Origin: Alphaproteobacteria bacterium
GTDB taxonomy: Bacteria; Pseudomonadota; Alphaproteobacteria; Bin95
Direction of reading: 5' to 3'
Length of the DNA stretch: 64,000 nt
Assembly: GCA_963665325.3 (NCBI GenBank)
Contig: OZ224045.1
Span: 2,240,001-2,304,000, forward strand
In this document: one piece after another, positions 47,313 through 57,904 of the stretch
Position numbering within the stretch: the first letter of the stretch is position 1
How the letters are laid out: each line of letters starts with the position of its first letter
Program-made: the position numbers and the translations under genes
Notes under the pieces: model-generated
Told to the model about the DNA's origin: nothing
Seen by the model: the letters and a program-made list of their open reading frames with translations, nothing else
The model's database searches: none

Positions 47313-47603
47313 GGCGGTTGCGTTCGAGACCCGTCTTGAGGCCTCACGCCACGATGCCGCCAACGACAATGCCGAACACCGCATCGGCCTCACCCTGACC
47401 GCGCGATGGTGACCTGCCGGCGGCCATAGCGGTTGTCGCGGGCGGCGCGGATCGCTGGCCGGGTCGCCGGAACGAAGCGTCCATTCGCCCGAGCAATCTC
47501 GCCCGCACGAGCAAAATCCCTTTACCAGCCCGAATTCGACAAATTTTCCCCCCCATTTCCTCCCGTTTGGGAGGCTCACTGATATTCAAAAATTACATAA
47601 ATT
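47313..47603 (+). repeat. Junction unit copy 1: orphan adhesin barrel tail (...EHRIGLTLTARW*) + conserved spacer + promoter
   Basis: 47313-47412 matches 58348-58447 with one mismatch seen; downstream spacer similar to copies 2 and 3. Confidence 0.88.
47559..47603 (+). promoter_or_regulatory. Palindrome plus -35/-10 promoter, copy 1
   Basis: CCTCCC-GTTT-GGGAGG, CTCACT, 17 bp, TAAATT. Confidence 0.6.
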
Positions 47604-47649
47604 GCGCCCCGACAACAAGAGTTGTCGCGAGGCAAATGGGGGCTTCGAG

Positions 47650-50598
47650 ATGGGGATTTCCTGGTTCGGCCTGCGTTCTCTCGCAGCCGTGCTGCTGCTC
47701 GTTTACGCCGCGCTGGTCGCGGCGCCGACGCCTGTCCGAGCGCAGAACACCTGCCCCGAGCCCGACGACATCTGGTGCGCCACCCTGACGGTGGCGGAAC
47801 TGGAAGTTGGTTCACTTACGTTTGGGTTTGGATACAACATAAATATAGGAGGGGCATTGTCGCACGACGAGTTCAGGTATGAAGGCACGGACTATACGGT
47901 TGCCCTCGTAAATATCACGCGTTTTGTAAATCCCTCTCTGCAAATTCAGTTTGCCCCAACCGGCGAGACGGTTTTCGGCACGGATGGCCTCCTTCTCTAC
48001 GTCGACGGGACGCCGTTCGCGTTTGACGACGCGGAATTTACAAGCAATCAGTTCATATGGGGCAATTCCGGCCTGAGCTGGGCCGTCGGCGCCACCGTCG
48101 AGGTCAGGCTGACCAAGGCGCCCGAGCCCGGCGGATCCCTCCAGGGTCAGCCGCAGATCGTGTTCGCCGCGAACTCGGGCTCGTCGGAGCCGGCGGCGCG
48201 TTGTCTCGGCGCTCCCTATGAGTTCAGGCGTTGGGCAAACCGGCCGGGAGGGATACCCGGGACGACGTGGACCCTGGACGTCGTGGAGCCGTCGGGCGGG
48301 TTTCGCAACGGAGCCAGCTTCACCGCGGACGACTTCGAAATCTCCGACGGCCAGGTCAAGACCATAGCGGAGGTGAACTATCCGAATCAGGAAAACACCT
48401 CGAACGTTCAGCCATTCGAGATGGTCATCACCGCTGTGGGCGAAGGTGTAACCAGGAGCCGTACGGTACGGGTGTACATCCTCAAGTCGGATCGCACGGA
48501 TCATTCCTCGCTCAACGTCTGCGGCCAGGCCGCGGGGGAGGGGGCCAAACGACCGCGATTGTCGGTGGCGGACGCTGAGGCGTATGAGGGTATCGACTCA
48601 CATTTGAAATTCCGGCTGCGCCTCAACAGGCCGGCACCCGTGCCGATAAGCGTGGCCTACTGGACGTACCAAGGCACGGCGACCCGTGGGACTGACTACA
48701 ACGAGGTCCCCAAGAAGACAGTGACCTTCGAGGTGGACGAGCAGTTCAAGGAGGTCCTCGTGGCGATCCTCGCTGACGACGAGGCAGACGACGGCGAGAC
48801 GGTGATTCTCGAACTGGCCGAACTGAGTGAGAATGCGAACTATGGCCGGTCCCGTGCCACAGGCACCATTCGCGATGCGCCGACCGGTCCGTCGACACTC
48901 TACGTGAGAAATACCAGAGCGGAAGAATTCGACGAGAAAATGGAATTCGTTGTCAGCTTGTACCCGCCATCGAATGGGGTAGTCACGGTGAATTATACTA
49001 CCGCCGACGGCACCGCCGAAGCAGGCTTCGACTACACGACCAGATCGGGCACGTTGACTTTCGGAGTGGGCGAGACGCACAAGACAATTACTGTGCCGAT
49101 CACAGACGATACACTCGAAGAATCCGACCCCTTCGAGTTTTTCTTTTTGAACCTGACCGATCCGAGTGGCGCCACATTTGAGCGCGGCGTTACTTCCTGG
49201 ACAGCCAATGGCATCATTGAAAATCATGAAACCGAAGAGAACTCCTCCGCTGTCTCGTCCGAAATCGCGGACGAACCGCTGACGGCGGAATTCACCGGCG
49301 TGCCGGACGAGCATGACGGCTCAAGCGCGTTCACCTTCCGGATCGCCTTCAGCGAGGACATCCGCAATAGCTACCGCAGGGTCCGCGACGACCTGCTTGC
49401 GGCCACCGGCGGAACGGTCACCGGCGCACGCCGCGTGGACGGGCGACGCGACCTGTGGGAGATCGAGGTAGATCCGTCCGGCAGCGACGGCGTGACGGTG
49501 ACGCTTGCCGCGGGGGACAGTTGCGCGACGGCGCCCTGCACAAGCGACGGCCGAACGCTTTCGCAGGCAATCACGGCCACCATCGAGGGCCCGCCCCTTC
49601 CCGGGCTCTCGGTGGCGGATGCGCAGGTCGAGGAAGGCCCGGGCGCGAAGCTCGGCTTTGCAATCACGCTCGATCGTGCGGTCGCGTGGACGGTGACGGT
49701 GCAGGCGGCGACGTCGGACGGGACAGCCGTCGCAGGCGAGGACTATCGGGCGAAGACCCTGACCAAGACCTTCGCCCCGGGCGAGACGAGGAAGGTTGCG
49801 GTGATACGGGTGCTCGAGGACGGCCATGACGACGACGGCGAGACGCTGACGCTGACGCTGTCGAACCCGTCGGGGGCCTTTATCTCCGACGGCACGGCGA
49901 CGGGGACCATCACGAACTCGGATCCGCTCCAGAAGATGTGGCTCGCGCGGTTCGGGCGCACGGTGGCCCTCCAGACCGTCAAGGCTCTGGAGGGGCGCTT
50001 CGCCATCGGGTCGGACGCCTCGCCGCGCATGACGATGACGGTGGCAGGCCAGAGCATGGACCTCTCGCGGATCGGCGACGACAAGGCGCTGGCGGAGACG
50101 ATAACGGGGCTTGCGCAGGCGTTCGGCGCGCCGGGTGCGCCGGCGGCGAACGACAACGATCCGTTTGCGCGGCACGGCTTCGGCGAGGCCGGCAACGGGG
50201 CCGTCGCCTCGGCGCCGGCGCAGCCGGTTACGGGGCGCGATCTTCTGCTCGGGAGTTCGTTCCACTTCACGACCGGCGAGGCGTCGGGCCTGGGGGGCGC
50301 GATGACCGGCTGGGGCAAGGTGCTGTCGGGCGGGTCGAGCAGTTCGTTTGGCGGCGGGCTGTCGTTTACGAGCGAGACGGCGACCGGCGTGCTCGGCATG
50401 GACTGGGAGCGGGACAGGCTCCTGGTCGGAGTGGCGCTGTCGCGGAGTGTCGAGAAGGGCAGCGCGGCGTTCGATCGGACGGGTCTGCAATATGACATCG
50501 AGGGCTCGCTCTCGATGGTGACGCCCTATATGCGCGTGCGCGCCGGCGAGCGGCTGTCGTTCTGGAGCGCGGTCGGTTCGGGCAGCGGCTCCATGTGA
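47650..50598 (+). pseudogene. Large autotransporter-like adhesin with Calx-beta repeats, 5' part, truncated by transposon insertion
   Basis: Signal peptide (…TPVRA/Q), Calx-beta motifs (TADGTAEAGFDY..TLTF), WLARFGRTVA, start of beta-barrel; stop TGA is the first 3 nt of the inserted element. Confidence 0.85.
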
Positions 50599-50841
50599 GT
50601 GTGCTCTCGGTATCTGATGGCGGGATGGTCACGTTGTTCGATGGTTTTCAGGCGTCGGGCCGGGCGTGACGGCGGGGGTGTCGGACGGCCGTCGGCGCGT
50701 CAAGCCGCTTCGCGGCTCCTGCGCTGCGCTCCGGCCCTTCGGGTGACCCGCCGCCGTCCCTCCGACGGAGTGCATCCATGGCCGTAAGCAAGCTTCCGGC
50801 CACGGGCCGGCCGCTTTACGCAGTGTGACAATGGGAGCGGT

Positions 50842-50860
50842 GTTACCCGTTACCGTTACC
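50842..50860. repeat. GTTACC x3 iteron-like repeats, with inverted GGTAAC copies at 52958 and 52971
   Basis: GTTACC at 50842, 50849 and 50855. Confidence 0.7.
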
Positions 50861-50872
50861 CTCTCTCCCTAG

Positions 50873-52942
50873 CCCAAGTTTAACAGAGCATTTTGAAGAT
50901 CATTGATTATCAATGCCTTACGGAGCAATAATTTCGCGTCTGGCACTACATTTCGGTTATTTCGCCCGGTTCGGGATCAGACGATCATTTTCCTGATGCC
51001 TCCAGGGGCGGGGTCGATGCCGAGCGCGCGATAGATTTCTTGCTGTTCGGGCTCGGCCCGTGTGGCCTTGCGGACATGCAAGGTGCGTCCGTCCTTGCGC
51101 CTGAAGGTCGCGGTGACCCGCTGCTGGCCTTCGAGGATGGCTCGCAGGCTGGCCCAGCTGGCGTGTTCGCCGTGCTCGGCGAGGCGCCGGCGGATGGTCT
51201 GCACCATCTGGTAGGCGATCACGGTGATGAACAGGTGGCCGTCGGAGCGCCTCTGGGTCTGGTGGAAGATGGGGCGCAGGCCGAGTTCCGACTTGAGCGA
51301 TCGGAACACCGCCTCCACATCGGTGAGCGAGGTATAGGTCCGCCACAGCGCCTCCTCGTCCCAGTCCTCGACGTTGGTGCGCAGGCAGTAAACGCCGGGA
51401 TGGGTGGCCATGGTGCCGGCGAGCGGGCGGCGCTCCCATGTGACGGCCCGGGCCTTCTCGCCGCTTTCGTCGGCGATGACGTCGATGTCGTAGTGGGCCG
51501 CGGCGCCGCGGCTCTTCTCCCTGATCCGGCCGATCCGCTGCCAGACATGGTCGAGCCGCTTGCGGGTGCGCGGCCGCTTGAGGCCGTCGTGGAGCTTCTG
51601 CATCTCGCCCTCGAAGCGCGCGGCGAAGCGGTTTGCGATGCCCTGTTCCTTCTTCGCCCGCGCCTCGGAGTAGCAGTAGAGCCGCGCCTCTCCAGCTTCG
51701 GCGTCGACCGCCTTGTGGACATGGACCGTCTGGCGCGACCGGGTCTCGATGGCCAGCGCCAGCTCGGGATCGAAGCGGCGGGTGCGTTCCCGGCTGACCG
51801 CGAGATAGCGGTAGCCGTTCGCGCGCAGCCAGGCGATGTTGGCCTCGGTGGCGATCCCCGCATCCATCACCACCAGCGCGTCCGCCGGCGCGCCCAGGGC
51901 GCCGAGCATCGACGCCAGGGTCCTGTCTTCGTTGACCGCGCCCGAGAACACCTCGGAGCGGCGCACGAAGCCCGAGCCGTCGAGCACCAGCCCCAGGGTC
52001 AAGAGCGGGCAATCCGAGCGCTTCTCCTTGGAATGGCCGCGTTCGGCCTTGGCCTGGGCCGCCGCCGCGCCCTCGAAGAAGGTGTTGGTCAGGTCGTACA
52101 GCGTCACCGTGTGGCGCAGGCCGAACAGATCCGTCGCCCGATCGAACAGATGCGCCTCGATCGCCGCGCGCTGCGCCATCAGGGCGTCGGAGGCGCGGTA
52201 CAGGCGCATCATGCTCATGCGCTCGAAGTCCACCCCCAGCAACTCGCCGAGCGCCGAACGCTCGCACAGCCAGCGCCAGGAGGCGCGCTCCGAGCCCGGC
52301 GCCGCCATGCGCGCGATCACGGTGGCCATGGCGAGCGCGCGCTGCGTGCCGTTGAAGCCCAGGCGCTCCAGCAAAGCCTCCAGGCCGAGCCGCTCCATGG
52401 CCCACAGCCCGACATGCTCGACGCCGACCGAACGCGGGCGGATCAGCTCCAGGGAGCCGACATCCACCGTCTGCAGGTCAGGGCGCCCGGTCCCGCCGGA
52501 CGGCGCGCTGTTGAGCAATTGCGCGGCGATGCGCTGGGCGTGCCGCTCGACCTCCTCCGGACAGGACAGCGAAACCAGCTCGGCCTGGCGGTCGAGCTGC
52601 TGCTGGATCCGGCTGCACAGCACCGCCCAGTGCCGCCGCTCGACAGGGAAGTCGCTCCCCAGGTTGAGCAGGGTGCGCTGGCGGATCTTCCCGCCGTCGC
52701 GCTCCGAGCGAACAAGGCGATGGGAATAATAGACCTCGCCGCGCTCGCCGGTTCCGGTCCTGGTGCGGCGAATGAACATGGCGCACAGCATAGGAGCGGG
52801 CGCAAGGTCTCGAAATCCCCAAGTGAAAATATTATGGCACTACATTGCGCCCCCGGAAACCTCAATCCAGCAATATCAATGGCTTGATGACACCGCGCCG
52901 GCCAACCTCGACAAAATCGGCCACCAAAACGTTAAACTTGGG
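50873..52942 (-). mobile_element. IS1634-family insertion sequence (2070 bp)
   Basis: Terminal IRs CCCAAGTTTAAC / GTTAAACTTGGG; CTAG duplicated at 50869-50872 and 52943-52946. Confidence 0.88.
50977..52779 (-). CDS. IS1634-family transposase
   Basis: MFIRRT...RQRTLLNLG, LYDLTNTFFEG, GHSKEKRSD, VMDAG, VEAVFRSLKSELGLRPIFH. Confidence 0.9.
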   Translation of the reverse strand: MFIRRTRTGTGERGEVYYSHRLVRSERDGGKIRQRTLLNLGSDFPVERRHWAVLCSRIQQQLDRQAELVSLSCPEEVERHAQRIAAQLLNSAPSGGTGRPDLQTVDVGSLELIRPRSVGVEHVGLWAMERLGLEALLERLGFNGTQRALAMATVIARMAAPGSERASWRWLCERSALGELLGVDFERMSMMRLYRASDALMAQRAAIEAHLFDRATDLFGLRHTVTLYDLTNTFFEGAAAAQAKAERGHSKEKRSDCPLLTLGLVLDGSGFVRRSEVFSGAVNEDRTLASMLGALGAPADALVVMDAGIATEANIAWLRANGYRYLAVSRERTRRFDPELALAIETRSRQTVHVHKAVDAEAGEARLYCYSEARAKKEQGIANRFAARFEGEMQKLHDGLKRPRTRKRLDHVWQRIGRIREKSRGAAAHYDIDVIADESGEKARAVTWERRPLAGTMATHPGVYCLRTNVEDWDEEALWRTYTSLTDVEAVFRSLKSELGLRPIFHQTQRRSDGHLFITVIAYQMVQTIRRRLAEHGEHASWASLRAILEGQQRVTATFRRKDGRTLHVRKATRAEPEQQEIYRALGIDPAPGGIRKMIV

Positions 52943-53941
52943 CTAGGGGTTCGAGGCGGTAACGGTTTTCGGTAACGTGTCCCTGCGGTCGTTGCCGTTG
53001 AGGGCGGCGAGGCGGTATCCGCCTTCGGATGCGCGCTCGACGCGTCCTTCGCGGACGAGCCTGTGCAGCGCCTCGGCGACGGTTGCGGGCCGGGTTGCCG
53101 CGCGCTCGCGGATCCGGCGCTGGGAGAGCGGCGCGTCGGCGTCGGCGAGGGCCTGCAGGATGCGCCGTTCGGGGGTATCCGGCTCCGGCGCCTGGTCTTC
53201 CGGCGTCTCGCGCAACCGCAGGGCGGGGCGCTCGTCGTCGTCGGCGAGTTCGATCTCGAGGTCTTCGAGGCCAGGGGCGTCGCGATGCTCGACGGTCATG
53301 AGGATCTGGCGGTCTCGCCGGCGCAGGTACAGATTCGAATCGCCCCAGGCGTGAAGTTCGCTGCTGCCGCGCAGCGCCTGCCCGGGCCGGGAGCCGCCGC
53401 TCTTTCGTGCGTGATGGACGAGGAGGACGGCGGTTTCGAAGCGGCGCTGTATGTCGCGCAGGAAGCCCAGCATGGGGGCGACCTCGGCGACGGTATTTTC
53501 GTCGACGCCGTGCAGGCGCACGAGGGGGTCGAGGACGACGAGGCGGGGTGAGACGCGCTCCACCGTCTCGACCAGGCGCTGGCGATCGGCGCGATGGTCG
53601 AGACGCAGCGTGGGCACGTCGATGACGGCGATGTCGAGGGTCTCGAACGCGGTGCCTGCCGCCTTTGCGATGCCCTGGAGGCGTGCGCGCACGATATGGC
53701 CGGCGTCCTCGGCGGCGAACAGCAGCACGGGGCCGCTTGCGGCGGGACGGAAGTGGCGCAGGCAGGGGACGCCGGCGGCGACCGCGACGGCGATGTCGAG
53801 TGCGAGGAAGGATTTGCCGCACTTGGGCTCGCCGCCGACGATGCCGACGCCCTGCTCGGACCACAACGCCTCGACCATCCAGCGGCGCGCCTGGGGGCGC
53901 TCTTCGAGCTCCGCCGGCGCCCGTGTCGGGAAGCCCTTCAC
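52943..53941 (-). CDS. AAA_25 / RepA(RSF1010)-like RecA-fold ATPase with C-terminal HTH
   Basis: GTGA coupling; GGEPKCGKS, FAAED, VVLDPL, LVHHARK, LRGSSELHAWGD; C-terminal winged-HTH-like segment. Confidence 0.85.
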   Translation of the reverse strand: MKGFPTRAPAELEERPQARRWMVEALWSEQGVGIVGGEPKCGKSFLALDIAVAVAAGVPCLRHFRPAASGPVLLFAAEDAGHIVRARLQGIAKAAGTAFETLDIAVIDVPTLRLDHRADRQRLVETVERVSPRLVVLDPLVRLHGVDENTVAEVAPMLGFLRDIQRRFETAVLLVHHARKSGGSRPGQALRGSSELHAWGDSNLYLRRRDRQILMTVEHRDAPGLEDLEIELADDDERPALRLRETPEDQAPEPDTPERRILQALADADAPLSQRRIRERAATRPATVAEALHRLVREGRVERASEGGYRLAALNGNDRRDTLPKTVTASNP

Positions 53942-54771
53942 CGCCGCGCCCTCCTCGGCTTGGCGGGTTCGCCCAGGGTCTCGATGAAGAGCTTCTCGTC
54001 GAGGACCTCGCGCTCCTTCTCGGCGGCGGCGGCGAGCAGGGCGTCGGCCATGACGGTGAGCGCCCGCGGGTTGCCGTCGGCATGGGCGACCAGGGTGTCC
54101 TTGAGGCCCGCGGTCATGAGGCCGGGATTGCCGGCCTGCTCGATCAGATGGTCGAGCAGGGCCGCGAGGTCGCCGGCCTCGGCCTTGGTCATGACCAGGC
54201 GCTGGCGGATGCGCGAGGCGATGGGCTGCAGATCGGGCTGGCGGAGCTTGTCGAGCAGGCGCGTGTCGCCGGCGAGGACGACCGAGAGGATGGCGCGCGA
54301 GTCGAAGTCGGTCGAAGCCAGCAGGCGGATCTCGGAGAACACCGAGGGCAGCAGCTCCTGGGCCTCGTCGACGAGCACGACGGGGCGCATGCGGGTATCG
54401 TCGACATGGGCGAGCCAGCGCTCGCGCAGGCTTTTGAAGCTGGCCCAGCGGTTGTTGTACATCAGGTCGACGCCGAACATCTCGCCGATCTCGCGGTAGA
54501 AGTCGGACAGCCGGGAGGAGGGATGGGTGATGGCGGCGATGCTGAGCCCCTCGCAGCGGCCGAGACGGTCGGCGAGCAGGCGCAACGCCACACTCTTTCC
54601 GGCGCCGGGCTCGCCGGCGATCAAGGCGAAGCCGCCCTGGCGCACCAGGTGGCGCTCGATCCTGAGGCAGAAGCTGTCGACGGCAGGCGTCGCCATGAGA
54701 CTGTCGACCGGCAGGTCGGTGGCGAAGGGGTTCCACTTGAGCCCGTAGAAGGTGAGCAGTTCCCGGTTCAT
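53938..54771 (-). CDS. ExeA-like AAA ATPase (transposition helper)
   Basis: FYGLKWNPF, GEPGAGKS, VVLVDEAQ, VVLAG, GNPR. Confidence 0.88.
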   Translation of the reverse strand: MNRELLTFYGLKWNPFATDLPVDSLMATPAVDSFCLRIERHLVRQGGFALIAGEPGAGKSVALRLLADRLGRCEGLSIAAITHPSSRLSDFYREIGEMFGVDLMYNNRWASFKSLRERWLAHVDDTRMRPVVLVDEAQELLPSVFSEIRLLASTDFDSRAILSVVLAGDTRLLDKLRQPDLQPIASRIRQRLVMTKAEAGDLAALLDHLIEQAGNPGLMTAGLKDTLVAHADGNPRALTVMADALLAAAAEKEREVLDEKLFIETLGEPAKPRRARR

Positions 54772-56243
54772 GGCGCATCTCCCCGATCTTCGTCCTCGCC
54801 CGGACCGGGCGTCTTGTCATGGGGCAGCCAGGCCGGCGGCAGGCCGGTTGCGGCCTGGGCGTCGAGCATGCCCTTGAGCAGCGGCGGAAGTTCCCCCGTC
54901 CCCGCGCCGCCATTGCCATCGTTGCCGCCGGGGCCGGCGGGACGGCGCACGCCATCGGCGTTGCCGCGCTTGTCGAGGGGGTACAGCGTGCACAGGCGCT
55001 CGCCGCCTCGACCGTCGATCAGATCGACGCTGGCGAGGTTCCAGCGCGCGTAACGGATCCAGGCCTCGCGCAGGTGGCGCCACGGCTGTGGCACCTGGTA
55101 GCGGATGCCCTCGACCGAGACGGTGCCGTCCGAGCGCCTGAGCGTGCGCTTCCTGGTGATGCGGAAGGCCGCCTTGAGCTCGGCCGAGCCGGGGCAGGAT
55201 CTCGACGCGTCGACGCTCCCGGCCAGGCGTTGATGCGGCGTCATGCCGAGCTCGCGGTGCTTGCGGCGGTGATAGTCCTGCTCCAGCCAGGCGATGGTGG
55301 CGTCGTTGAGCATCTTCAAGGTAAGCGCGTCGACGCCTTCGAGCTGAGCCATCAGGCGCGATTCGACCGTGCCCCAGAACGACTCGATCTTGCCGTTCTG
55401 ATGGGGGCTGTAAGCGAGCGTCGTGACCCCCGCGATGCCGAGCCGGTGCAACCCCTCCTCGACCTCGCCCGCGGTCATCGCCGCGCCGTTGTCGGTCAGC
55501 AGGGACCTCGGCAGACCGCGCTTCATGAAGGCCTGGCAAAGGCCGTGGACGAACACCTCGGCGGTCTCGGCGAGGTACCACTGAAGGTGGCAGCCGAGGC
55601 GCGAGTGGTCGTCGAGGAAGCCGAGCAGGATCGGCGTCTTCCACTCGCCCGAGGCGGTCAGCACGCGACGCTTGGCGCTGTGCATGTCGGCGTGCCACAG
55701 GGCGTGAGAGCGCGAGACCTCGTAGCTCAATACCTCGCGGGCTTCGACCGCCGGCCTGGCCTCGCTCTCATGCCACTTGCGCCGGCGCTTGCGTACCAGC
55801 CCGCGAGCCCGCATCGCCCGGGTCAGCGTCGCGTAGGACGGTATCGGGCCGAGCTCGGGATCGGCCTCGACCCGCGCGGCCAGATTCTCGTGATGAAGCT
55901 GCGCCGACCACGACGGATGCGCCCGGTACTGCTCGTGCAGCGCCTCGATCAGCGTCGGCGACATCGCGCGCGGGCGCCCGGCATCGGCGCGCGGGCGCCG
56001 CTTGAGCGCCCCCACCGGATCGTTGTCCGCCGCCCGCGCCTGGTAGTACCAGCGCTCGATCGTGGACACCGCGAAGCGCACCCGGCCCTTGCCGGACGGG
56101 TGATCCCACTCGCGTTCGGCAAGCCGCTCAAGCTCGGCGTGCAGCCGCCCCGCCGGCGGCGGCGAGGCCAGAAGCGGCCCGACCACCGCGAAGCGCAACC
56201 GCGCCCACCGGTCGCGACGCTCGCTCCCGTCGTTGCTGTTCAT
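54768..56243 (-). CDS. DDE transposase/integrase (rve core, Mu-type C-terminus)
   Basis: WHADMH / LLTDNG / GKIESFW catalytic D-D-E; HTH STIERWYY; RSDGTVSVEGIRY. Confidence 0.9.
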   Translation of the reverse strand: MNSNDGSERRDRWARLRFAVVGPLLASPPPAGRLHAELERLAEREWDHPSGKGRVRFAVSTIERWYYQARAADNDPVGALKRRPRADAGRPRAMSPTLIEALHEQYRAHPSWSAQLHHENLAARVEADPELGPIPSYATLTRAMRARGLVRKRRRKWHESEARPAVEAREVLSYEVSRSHALWHADMHSAKRRVLTASGEWKTPILLGFLDDHSRLGCHLQWYLAETAEVFVHGLCQAFMKRGLPRSLLTDNGAAMTAGEVEEGLHRLGIAGVTTLAYSPHQNGKIESFWGTVESRLMAQLEGVDALTLKMLNDATIAWLEQDYHRRKHRELGMTPHQRLAGSVDASRSCPGSAELKAAFRITRKRTLRRSDGTVSVEGIRYQVPQPWRHLREAWIRYARWNLASVDLIDGRGGERLCTLYPLDKRGNADGVRRPAGPGGNDGNGGAGTGELPPLLKGMLDAQAATGLPPAWLPHDKTPGPGEDEDRGDAP

Positions 56244-56291
56244 TCCGGCATCCCCCTCGCTGCTTCGTGGAGGTGCCGATGATGCGGTGCC

Positions 56292-56906
56292 CTATCCGTG
56301 CATCATAGAAACGCTTTCTGCGGGCGAAGCCGGACCTGCGCCGAGCGCGCAAAAGCCGGTCCACGGCATCAGCCAGACCAGGCTCCGCAGCAGCCGCGAG
56401 CGGAAGCCACGGCCCCGCATGATGCGCAGCAGCCGGCGCAGCGGCGCCTCTTCGGGCGGCGCCGCCAGCTCGCCCCGTCTCGCCTGCCACTCCCGGGTCA
56501 GCGGGAAGGCTTCCAGCCACCAGCGCCGCCAGCGCTTCAGCGTCGAGGCCGGAACCCCGCACCGCCGCGCGATCGTCTGCAACCGCGCGCCGCCGGCCAC
56601 AGCCAGCGCACTCACCACAAGGAACAGCGCCCCGACGTAAAAGCGCCTGCCGAAGAAACGCACCGACGGCGGCTTCACGCGGCGTCGGCACACCGAACAG
56701 CACAGGCTGAAGCGCCGAACGTCGTTCCGAAGATTCGCCGCCAGACCGTGCGGCTTGCGCGGGTAGCTCGCGCTGTGAAGCGCGCCGCCGCAGCGCGGGC
56801 AACCCGCCGCCCGGCACGCCTCCGCCTCGGCCGCGTCGACCTGCTTCAGAAAATCCCAAACCCGGGCGTTGGAGAGATTGGAGTGCCGGAACAGCTTGTG
56901 CGACAT
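56292..56906 (-). CDS. Zn-ribbon + HTH accessory transposon protein
   Basis: CPRC...YPRKP...CCSVCRRR..PPSVRF; GVPASTLKRWRRWW. Confidence 0.75.
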   Translation of the reverse strand: MSHKLFRHSNLSNARVWDFLKQVDAAEAEACRAAGCPRCGGALHSASYPRKPHGLAANLRNDVRRFSLCCSVCRRRVKPPSVRFFGRRFYVGALFLVVSALAVAGGARLQTIARRCGVPASTLKRWRRWWLEAFPLTREWQARRGELAAPPEEAPLRRLLRIMRGRGFRSRLLRSLVWLMPWTGFCALGAGPASPAESVSMMHG

Positions 56907-57055
56907 TGGGGCCGTCTCAGGTTGATGTCACTGTCACCGAGACAAGCCCTCCGGCGGCCTTCTTGCAAGATCGCCGGGGGGCACCCAATCCAAAACCTCG
57001 ATTAATCCGAGCCGATCAGCCCCTGATCGCCGCTGAAAGCCTGCGCCCGCTCACC

Positions 57056-57904
57056 ATGTCGCTTTCGCAGGGCGGCGGATGGCAGACGGCGGACATCGCC
57101 ATGCAGCTTGCGGCTGCGGGCGGGCGCGCCGAGTTGCTGCGTCCCGGGGCCGATGGCGGGCTTGCGCTGGCGCTGAAGACGGATGCGTTCTTCGTGCGGA
57201 GCGAGTCGGCGCGGGTATCGACGCCCGGCGTCGGCAATCTCGGGGCTGCGACGGGCGATGCAAGCCGCGTGCGGGCCGTATTGGAAGGATCGCGGGCGTT
57301 CGCGCTGGCTGGCGGCGGGGCGCTGGCGCCGTCGCTGTCGCTCGGGCTGCGCCATGACGGCGGCGATGCGGAGACGGGTTCGGGCGTGGAGGTCGGCGCC
57401 GGGCTCACATGGTCCGCGCCGGCAGCCGGGCTGACCTCGGAGCTGCGCCTCTACGGCCTGGCGGCGCATGAGGCGGGCGGCTACGACGAATGGGGGGCGA
57501 GCGGTTCGCTGCGGATGGTTCCGGGTCCGTCAGGCCGCGGGCTGTCGCTGTCGATGACGCCGTCATGGGGCGCCCGGGACCAGGCCGGGCGGCTGTGGGA
57601 TGCGGCGCCCGGCGGGTTGGCCGGGGACGGCGACAGGGAGCAGCCGGGCGTGCGCCTCGACACGGAACTCGGCTATGGCCTCTCCCTGTCGGACGGCCTG
57701 ACCGGCACGCCCTATGCGGGCTTCGGGTTCGGCGAGGCCGGCGCCCGGGACTACCGCCTCGGCTGGCGGCTCTCATCGGACCGGTTGCAATCGTTCTCTC
57801 TGGGCATCGAGGCGACCCGCCGCGAGGCCGCAAACGCTAACGGATCGGGGGAGGGCGGCAAGCCGGAGCACAGCGTGACGCTGCGCGGCGCGGTGCGCTG
57901 GTAG
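57056..57904 (+). pseudogene. 3' part (beta-barrel) of the adhesin split by the transposon
   Basis: In frame with 47650-50595; LALKTDAFFVR, GLRHDGGDAETG, ELGYG, terminal LRGAVRW. Confidence 0.85.

Follow-up and report, generated by a model that had tools for sequence, protein, structure and literature searches.

A Tn6049-family transposon with its own RepA/DnaB-like gene, a possible helicase for the replication step of transposition

The hand-over to replication by transposons that nick their 3' ends has been detailed for phage Mu alone, where it proceeds via host restart proteins (the PriA/DnaB restart on which Mu relies). Among the other systems built on a transposase and an ATPase or on a related transposase, Tn7 and Tn5053 produce a fixed 5-bp target duplication, the IS21 and IS481 families produce duplications of variable length, and Tn6049 was named as a transposon in 2009-2010. 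In the papers on it, Tn6049 is the name of the element on plasmid pHS87a, with 12-bp imperfect inverted repeats and a 4-bp direct repeat (PMC4739549); the 3.5-kb Tn6049 is reported to occur 12 times in Cupriavidus metallidurans CH34, each time with an ATPase gene termed gspA (PMC2864759); and the Tn6049 transposition module "could not be categorized" (PMC6210171, a paper of 2018). Here we describe a transposon at positions 50596-57053 of a 64,000-nucleotide stretch of alphaproteobacterial DNA (contig OZ224045.1; the whole stretch is called the window below), which by sequence comparison belongs to the Tn6049 family, a family that is named and mechanistically little studied. Its first three genes (A, B and C) follow Tn6049, and its fourth, D, encodes a predicted RepA/DnaB-type helicase-like protein. 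We put at roughly 45% the probability that D provides a helicase for the replicative step of transposition.

The window holds one copy of the transposon, whose termini are TGAG (50596-50599) and CTCA (57050-57053), with weak terminal inverted repeats (TGAGYGKGC, matching at 7/9 positions) and a CCATG target duplication at 50591-50595 on the left and 57054-57058 on the right. The D-distal end (50596..50872, minus strand) comprises 277 bp of non-coding DNA with the terminus TGAGTGTGC, and the A-proximal end (56907..57053, minus strand) comprises 147 bp and finishes with ...GCCCGCTCA. Interrupted by the insertion is an autotransporter-like host gene on the plus strand, whose 5' part (47602..50595, 998 aa) carries three Calx-beta repeats and whose 3' part (57059..57904, 281 aa plus stop) falls in frame once the element is removed. 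As it stands, the host open reading frame (ORF) at 47602..50598 ends in ...GSGSM*, its stop codon being formed by the first bases of the element, and the frame of the ORF at 56906..57904 reads ...TMSLSQ by way of ACC ATG TCG at 57053-57061. When the element is excised together with one CCATG, the ATG at 50593-95 meets the TCG at 57059 in frame, giving an open frame of 1281 aa.

The element is held by 20 public sequencing runs from 10 studies, 14 of which contain at least half of its sampled words, and four runs were compared with the window at the level of junctions, all as contigs. In two of these the empty site was found: contigs of runs X1 (n=2) and X2 (n=1) join 50590 to 57054 and so skip 6463 bases. 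As the element occurs in these runs too, either the site is polymorphic for the insertion or a closely related strain is without it. Run X2, which derives from a different organism, also yielded contigs that start at 50596 or end at 57053 and bear several different flanks, indicating that the same ends are used elsewhere. Taken together, these results leave us almost certain that 50596-57053 is a real and active Tn6049-family transposon. An earlier reading of this DNA, made from the letters alone (the sequence-only reading), had described a precisely bounded transposon with TG...CA ends, weak terminal repeats, a CCATG duplication and a host frame restored by removal of the element; its boundaries are exactly those given here, and each of these points was borne out.

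All four genes lie on the minus strand, co-oriented as had been read from the letters, with B and C overlapping by ATGA and C and D by GTGA. Gene A (56906..56292, 204 aa) combines a four-cysteine zinc ribbon (C36, C39, C70 and C73) with an HTH_23 domain; gene B (56243..54768, 491 aa) is an rve-type DDE transposase with HTH_32, rve and rve_3 domains; and gene C (54771..53938, 277 aa) is an AAA_22 ATPase, ExeA/GspA-like and MuB/TniB-like. The best annotated relatives of B, at 50.4% identity, are found on the Pseudomonas aeruginosa plasmid pHS87a and on Cupriavidus plasmids, in an operon annotated as a 'transposase' (181 aa, a small HTH protein), an 'IS481 family transposase', an 'AAA family ATPase' (277 aa) and then a hypothetical protein of 71-90 aa. 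A tblastn comparison with Tn6049 of pHS87a aligned A (39% over 149 aa), B (50% over 464 aa) and C (52% over 278 aa) in the same order, and this co-linearity means that the element is not a new class. The proposal that it represents an undescribed class of transposon thus falls (PMC2864759, PMC4739549). The match to a described family is, however, partial: it covers A-B-C, and Tn6049 is described without D, which is absent both from the pHS87a element by tblastn and from the annotation of the C. metallidurans plasmid. The two elements share short imperfect terminal repeats beginning with TG, a short duplication and a multicopy habit, and fall in sister clades of a quick transposase tree. They differ in that Tn6049 measures 3517 bp on pHS87a and has the 71-90 aa ORF after its ATPase, whereas the window element measures 4384 bp, a nested insertion sequence (IS) aside, and has the 332-aa D. 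What is new relative to Tn6049 is therefore D, a conserved mobile accessory of transposase/ATPase pairs. Our literature searches, whose scope did not extend to ISfinder, TnCentral, the 2009 Tn6049 paper or supplements, returned no description of a RepA-like gene tied to such pairs.

The catalytic residues of the pair are intact. In B, D186, D251 and E287 are invariant and form a complete DD(35)E triad, and in C the Walker A (G53-S60) and Walker B (D135 E136) motifs are invariant. Although the best NCBIfam model for B is IS481 (NF033577), its score of 123.9 bits over the whole model lies far below the cut-off of 224, and the IS21 model NF033546, whose cut-off is 160, gives 45.1 bits; Pfam does not match C to IstB_IS21, and in NCBIfam C resembles the ExeA-like PEP-CTERM ATPase model. 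With its four genes the element also departs from the single-gene IS481 elements and from the one or two genes of IS21, and with both families it shares a variable duplication length. The element also bears a likeness to phage Mu, in that B matches the transposable-phage transposase family phrog_310 of PHROGs (E 2.4e-40, residues 41-432) and C the 'DNA transposition protein' family phrog_296 (E 1.4e-23), with a weak match of C to MuB in the PDB (8xvb, E 0.056). The resemblance to the Mu A/B pair that had been proposed is thereby upheld. As the element encodes no nuclease for the 5' strands, replication-dependent transposition is probable, as in Mu, from which it differs in having no phage genes and in carrying a helicase-like gene of its own. 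With Tn5053/Tn402 and Tn7-like elements it has in common an operon of an rve transposase and an AAA_22-type ATPase as well as TG...CA ends. Unlike them, it has no TniQ, resolvase or TnsA; a search by Pfam and NCBIfam found none of these and no Cas protein, in keeping with what the letters had suggested. TniA and TnsB of Tn7/Tn5053 contain Mu-transpos_C; in B, Pfam finds rve, rve_3 and HTH_32 and not this domain, and the Mu-type phrog_310 extends over most of the same protein.

Gene D (53941..52943, minus strand, 332 aa) starts at a GTG at 53941 that overlaps the stop of C, with GAGGAGG 7 nt upstream, and its relatives begin with M at the position aligned to this GTG. The protein pairs an AAA_25 RecA-fold ATPase domain (E 5e-36) with a C-terminal winged helix of the IclR/MarR/GntR type. 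By sequence, its sole solved relative is the RepA helicase of plasmid RSF1010 (1g8y, E 2.4e-8). An AlphaFold model built from a 30-row alignment (pLDDT 73.6) was used for a Foldseek search, in which RepA was again the best target-normalised match (TM 0.69, 21-22% identity), followed, for this predicted fold, by DnaB, RadA, Rad51/Dmc1 and KaiC. Among the 30 and 34 homologues aligned, the motifs GGEPKxGKS (Walker A), AAEDA, LDPxVRLH (Walker B), DEN, VHHAxK and LRGSSE..AW.D are all invariant or very close to it; D thus carries conserved Walker A, H1a, Walker B, H3 and H4-type motifs. In PHROGs it matches the helicase halves of phage primase-helicases, one relative that is 42% identical possesses a DnaB N-terminal domain, and a plasmid relative at 30% identity adjoins a replication initiator gene. 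D is set apart from RSF1010 RepA and DnaB by its C-terminal winged helix and by its place in a transposon rather than in a plasmid replication module. Fusion of C to D was sought in eight long D relatives, and an AAA_22 N-terminus was found in none. These comparisons agree with the RepA-like character first assigned to D and lead us to predict a RepA/DnaB-type helicase-like protein.

An ATPase of oligomer-forming type linked to Mu-like B and C proteins might also serve to remodel or disassemble the transpososome after strand transfer, or to mediate target immunity, given that Mu needs an ATP-dependent remodeller, ClpX, at this stage. The modelled fold of D is that of RecA/DnaB and not that of an AAA+ unfoldase, and copies of the element lying 5-7 kb apart (see below) argue against strong immunity, so that we regard such a role as very improbable.

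We examined how regularly D accompanies the transposition genes, starting once from B and once from D. A B-anchored scan of species-representative genomes gave 80 loci (B at 51-92% identity), which after de-duplication came to 46 distinct transposases of the family, including those of the window and of Tn6049. D follows C directly in 24 of the 46, and one further row (L047) represents a D-bearing element in truncated form; six have no D in at least 1.1 kb after C, twelve show no D match in the 350-1100 bp available after C, and in three the state of D could not be judged. In a quick maximum-likelihood tree of these transposases, the clade of the window element (21 rows, SH-aLRT 96) together with L071 is D-bearing throughout, the truncated L047 being one of the 21, and the sister clade (24 rows, SH-aLRT 99), which includes Tn6049, is mostly without D, with three rows that have it. 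A metagenome scan with D returned hundreds of matching stretches, from which we drew a D-anchored sample of 80 loci (D at 52-81% identity). Of these, 74 extend at least 300 bp upstream of D; in 70 of them a homologue of C stands immediately before D, and in the other four (L109, L111, L121 and L122) the place is taken by the IstB of an IS21-type IstA/IstB pair. Thus, a transposition ATPase directly precedes D in 74 of 74 testable loci, mostly with a start-stop overlap or a short gap. Where the contig leaves room, D has B upstream at 53 of 54 loci and A upstream at 33 of 35, and D always holds the same position and strand relative to the transposition genes. Across 64 distinct A-B-C-D elements, the identity of D tracks that of B (Spearman 0.78) and of C (0.75), a co-divergence that extends down to about 50% identity; because the rows are related, the P values of these correlations are overstated.

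This regularity bears on whether D is simply a passenger that plays no part in transposition and has spread among transposons, for instance a gene for repair or anti-defence, or one of selfish or addiction type. Tn6049 manages without D, and D has moved between unrelated transposase-ATPase pairs much as cargo modules do. A passenger would, however, hardly be expected behind a transposition ATPase at every testable locus, in a constant position and orientation and diverging in step with B and C. Moreover, a PADLOC scan of D gave no significant match, and the plasmid collection we searched is nearly devoid of D, with four matching records, all at no more than 30.5% identity. We therefore consider a mere passenger quite unlikely and D very probably a dedicated transposition accessory, in line with the earlier suggestion that D may be a core component. 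The D-type family is large: at a limit of E 1e-30 it counts 489 cluster representatives. Cultured collections, however, rarely contain D; apart from the few plasmid records, it was found in 2 of 401 genomes sampled from the class to which the window belongs, this one included, and a genome of the same genus is without it.

The association of D with transposases is not confined to relatives of Tn6049. At L037 (12382-16241, minus strand), a TniA/TniB-like pair, consisting of a 453-aa transposase with rve and Mu-transpos_C domains and then an AAA_22 ATPase, shows 34% and 27% identity to B and C, and behind it stands a D that is 78% identical to that of the window. D and the roughly 240 bp that follow it are common to this element and a co-resident Tn6049-type element (79.6% over 1262 bp), and the termini are not, which to judge from the alignment looks like a module swap of D. 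At L111 (996-4389), and likewise at L109, L121 and L122, an IstA with Mu-transpos_C_2 and an IstB_IS21 are followed by a D homologue at 56% identity. The L111 type also has, between IstB and D, a short ORF with a weak similarity to the fourth ORF of Tn6049, which is 90 aa long (E 7e-4).

In part of the family a fifth gene lies behind D. This gene, E, encodes 289 aa with DUF3991 and Toprim_2 domains and was found in nine element types (the L014 group, the L020 group, L023, L024, L025, L056/63, L057, L058 and L069/71) at 46-100% mutual identity; the copy at L014:11404-12270 is an example. A Toprim protein beside a DnaB/RepA-type helicase is the classic primase-helicase pairing. The Toprim gene after D, along with the phage and plasmid relatives of D that are replication helicases, points to replication as the process in which D takes part.

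On this basis we propose the following scheme. B would nick the 3' ends of the element and join them to the target, which an ATP-bound filament or ring of C would hold, as in MuA/MuB, TniA/TniB and IstA/IstB. Since the element encodes no 5'-strand nuclease or resolvase, the strand-transfer product (or a figure-eight of the IS3/IS481 type) must be replicated. D could then act as the element's own ring helicase, loading on the branched intermediate via its winged helix and/or the ATPase complex, opening this intermediate for replication and lowering the dependence of transposition on host restart proteins. Where E is present, it would complete a helicase-primase pair. If so, such elements bring along a part of the replisome that is needed to finish replicative (or copy-out) transposition, and a family with its own RepA/DnaB-like helicase would offer a simple system for the study of the hand-over, one that may reveal a host-independent route. 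More broadly, and more tentatively still, widespread DDE transposons may have recruited a replicative helicase of their own, with a Toprim partner in a subclade, and swapped it among at least three transposase/AAA+ lineages of the Tn6049, TniA/TniB and IS21 types. Were this true, they would stand to DDE transposons much as casposons and other 'self-synthesising' elements stand to their own kinds, which could explain their spread across very different hosts. The comparison also gives Tn6049 a place, as the A-B-C core to which an optional replication-type module of D and E is added.

Several observations weigh against a replicative role of D. RecA-fold ATPases have many roles. Neither the window element nor any other part of its genome contains the Toprim gene, and it was found in 0 of the 34 D-anchored metagenome loci with room after D; as it is limited to some relatives, the helicase-primase pairing holds for a subclade only. 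End-to-end joints, from a circle or a tandem, were absent among the joints listed (15 of 25), which were read from contigs, so that rare junctions are possible. Tn6049 proper transposes without D, with 12 copies reported in CH34 (PMC2864759), and since it works without D, D is not essential to the core chemistry. Finally, by analogy with Tn5053-type operons, D occupies the position of TniQ, and a target selector would fit equally well by position.

The sequence-only reading had indeed cast D as a helicase standing in place of a target selector, and one may go further and suppose that D is itself the selector or a fork sensor, filling the slot of TniQ, TnsD or TnsE and recruiting C to a DNA structure such as a replication fork or an ssDNA-dsDNA junction, or to a site bound by the winged helix. 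D follows the AAA+ ATPase directly in three transposase-ATPase lineages, just as tniQ does in the tniABQ order seen on pHS87a, no other candidate apart from A is encoded, and the C-terminal winged helix is conserved. Yet the catalytic helicase motifs are all invariant, and it is not obvious what the primase-like Toprim neighbour that some family members have would do in the choice of a target. A selecting function is accordingly possible and not the best supported, the Toprim neighbour and the replication-helicase relatives favouring replication; the insertion sites, described below, also speak on this point.

Downstream of D, at 50676..50810 (minus strand), we identified a structured non-coding motif of about 136 nt, whose mean column identity of 91% over 10 elements exceeds that of the neighbouring genes. 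It is predicted to fold into a hairpin and a branched long stem, with compensatory changes at 7 of 48 pairs against 2.4 +/- 0.8 in shuffles and no more than 3 with slid partners. Folded as a single sequence, the 277-bp D-distal end is not significant (z = -1.39), and it was the test on the alignment that proved informative. In Rfam, scanned over 50400-57300, the motif had no match, the single hit being a chance IRES_Bip (E 0.12). A covariance model of the motif (R1) matches one subclade of elements without the Toprim gene and, in addition, the TniA/TniB-type L037, and never matched Toprim-bearing elements or distant D-bearing ones. The motif could be an entry site for helicase or primase in elements that have no primase gene.

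The same motif raises the idea that D, with the motif or the Toprim gene, forms a mini-replicon, such that an excised circle replicates in the manner of a plasmid before it re-inserts. In its favour, the nearest solved relative of D is a plasmid helicase, a distant relative lies beside a plasmid replication initiator, the motif sits next to D in a subclade and has moved with D into a different transposon, and B is nearest to the IS481 type in NCBIfam, the IS3 and IS481 groups being known to use circular intermediates. Nonetheless, neither an initiator protein nor iterons were found, the joints listed above include no circle junction, and the motif is confined to one subclade. We thus hold plasmid-like replication of a circle to be improbable, and retain as our preferred reading a helicase that acts on the branched strand-transfer product.

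A search of the window's own genome (5 contigs, 5.58 Mb) revealed 24 near-identical copies of the element. Twenty-one of these measure 4384 bp, with zero substitutions among them, in agreement with the length deduced beforehand for the element without its nested IS; two measure 4383 bp, each with a 1-bp deletion inside a G run; and the window copy measures 6458 bp because of the 2070-bp IS nested in it. The flanks of all 24 copies show an exact 5-bp duplication in 10, a 4-bp duplication in 8, a 6-bp duplication in 2 and a 5-bp duplication with one mismatch in 2, while the remaining 2 carry each other's flanks. The 5-bp duplication of Mu/Tn7 style that had been ascribed to the element must therefore give way to a range of 4-6 bp, in which it differs from Tn7 and Tn5053; for Tn6049 a length of 4 bp is reported (PMC4739549). 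Multicopy relatives in other genomes have the conserved termini TGAGCG...GCGCTCA and duplications of 4-5 bp. This recent burst of copies breaks genes and reshuffles replicons in the present genome.

These insertions also bear on target choice. Neighbouring copies lie as close as 5291, 6634 and 6935 bp, and a distance of 5.3 kb indicates, if indirectly, that there is no evident target immunity, a further difference from Tn7 and Tn5053. A target-site logo of the 24 sites displays GC-richness as the sole visible preference. Regarding strand, 14 of the 17 plus-strand copies and 3 of the 7 minus-strand copies lie in positive local GC skew; skew is weak in this genome, its cumulative curve has no clear origin/terminus shape, and across the 24 copies orientation has no clear link to it. 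At 67% GC, the longest open frame across restored sites carried information for the window copy alone. Sites free of sequence preference beyond GC-richness, copies 5.3-6.9 kb apart and an orientation without a clear tie to local skew (weak as this is here) all argue against D as a selector or fork sensor, which we judge unlikely.

Two groups of copies stand out. The copies at C2:25283-29666 and C4:930514-934897, on two contigs of the genome, have exchanged their target duplications, being flanked by CCGT/GGTCG and GGTCG/CCGT, respectively. This could stem from recombination between copies, from an unresolved cointegrate joining two replicons or from an assembly join across the repeat, and the pair decides nothing between a cointegrate and homologous recombination. 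On another contig and outside the window, at C1:1982775-2101890, seven of the 24 copies are gathered within 120 kb, six sharing the same orientation, in a region with an unusually strong positive GC skew of 0.08-0.16.

The nested IS belongs to the IS1634 family (NF033559, E 5e-88), occupies 50873..52942 on the minus strand (2070 bp) and encodes a transposase of 604 aa at 52791..50977. It has a 12-bp inverted repeat, CCCAAGTTTAAC, and is bordered by the duplication CTAG at 50869-50872 and 52943-52946. It inserted precisely at the TAG that ends gene D, and D stays intact. About a dozen further copies occur in the genome, at sites resembling CTAA, CTAG or TTAG, and contigs of three public runs skip the nested IS exactly (50868 to 52943).

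Among 30 homologues of gene A, the four cysteines are invariant, alongside a YPRKP motif and a TLxRWRxWW helix, and we take A to be probably an end-binding or regulatory DNA-binding protein, its role being a guess. Its structure model (pLDDT 59.7) was too poor for a fold search. The ESM Atlas clusters to which A leads are partly DUF6431 (32-44% of members), which serves as a lead only, as none of the 30 homologues has a DUF6431 match in Pfam at E up to 1. A profile of A compared by hhalign with the small upstream ORFs of L111 and L037 showed no relation.

Contigs of an RNA run (X17) represent portions of all four genes from a relative, mostly at 90-95% likeness, and one contig of 844 nt spans the C/D boundary; this is a weak hint of co-transcription, with DNA carry-over possible.

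Four short contigs (L011, L012, L023 and L044), with B 71-92% identical to that of the window, are binned to metagenome-assembled genomes of Chloroflexota, Gemmatimonadota, Actinomycetota and Acidobacteriota, reflecting either very wide recent transfer or mis-binned repeat contigs. Lastly, a patch of 177 bp outside the window, at C1:446362-446538, contains a copy of the A-proximal terminal 43 bp (86% identical) together with an inverted fragment of the 3' end of D (84% identical), and is the remnant of an older, diverged relative of the element.

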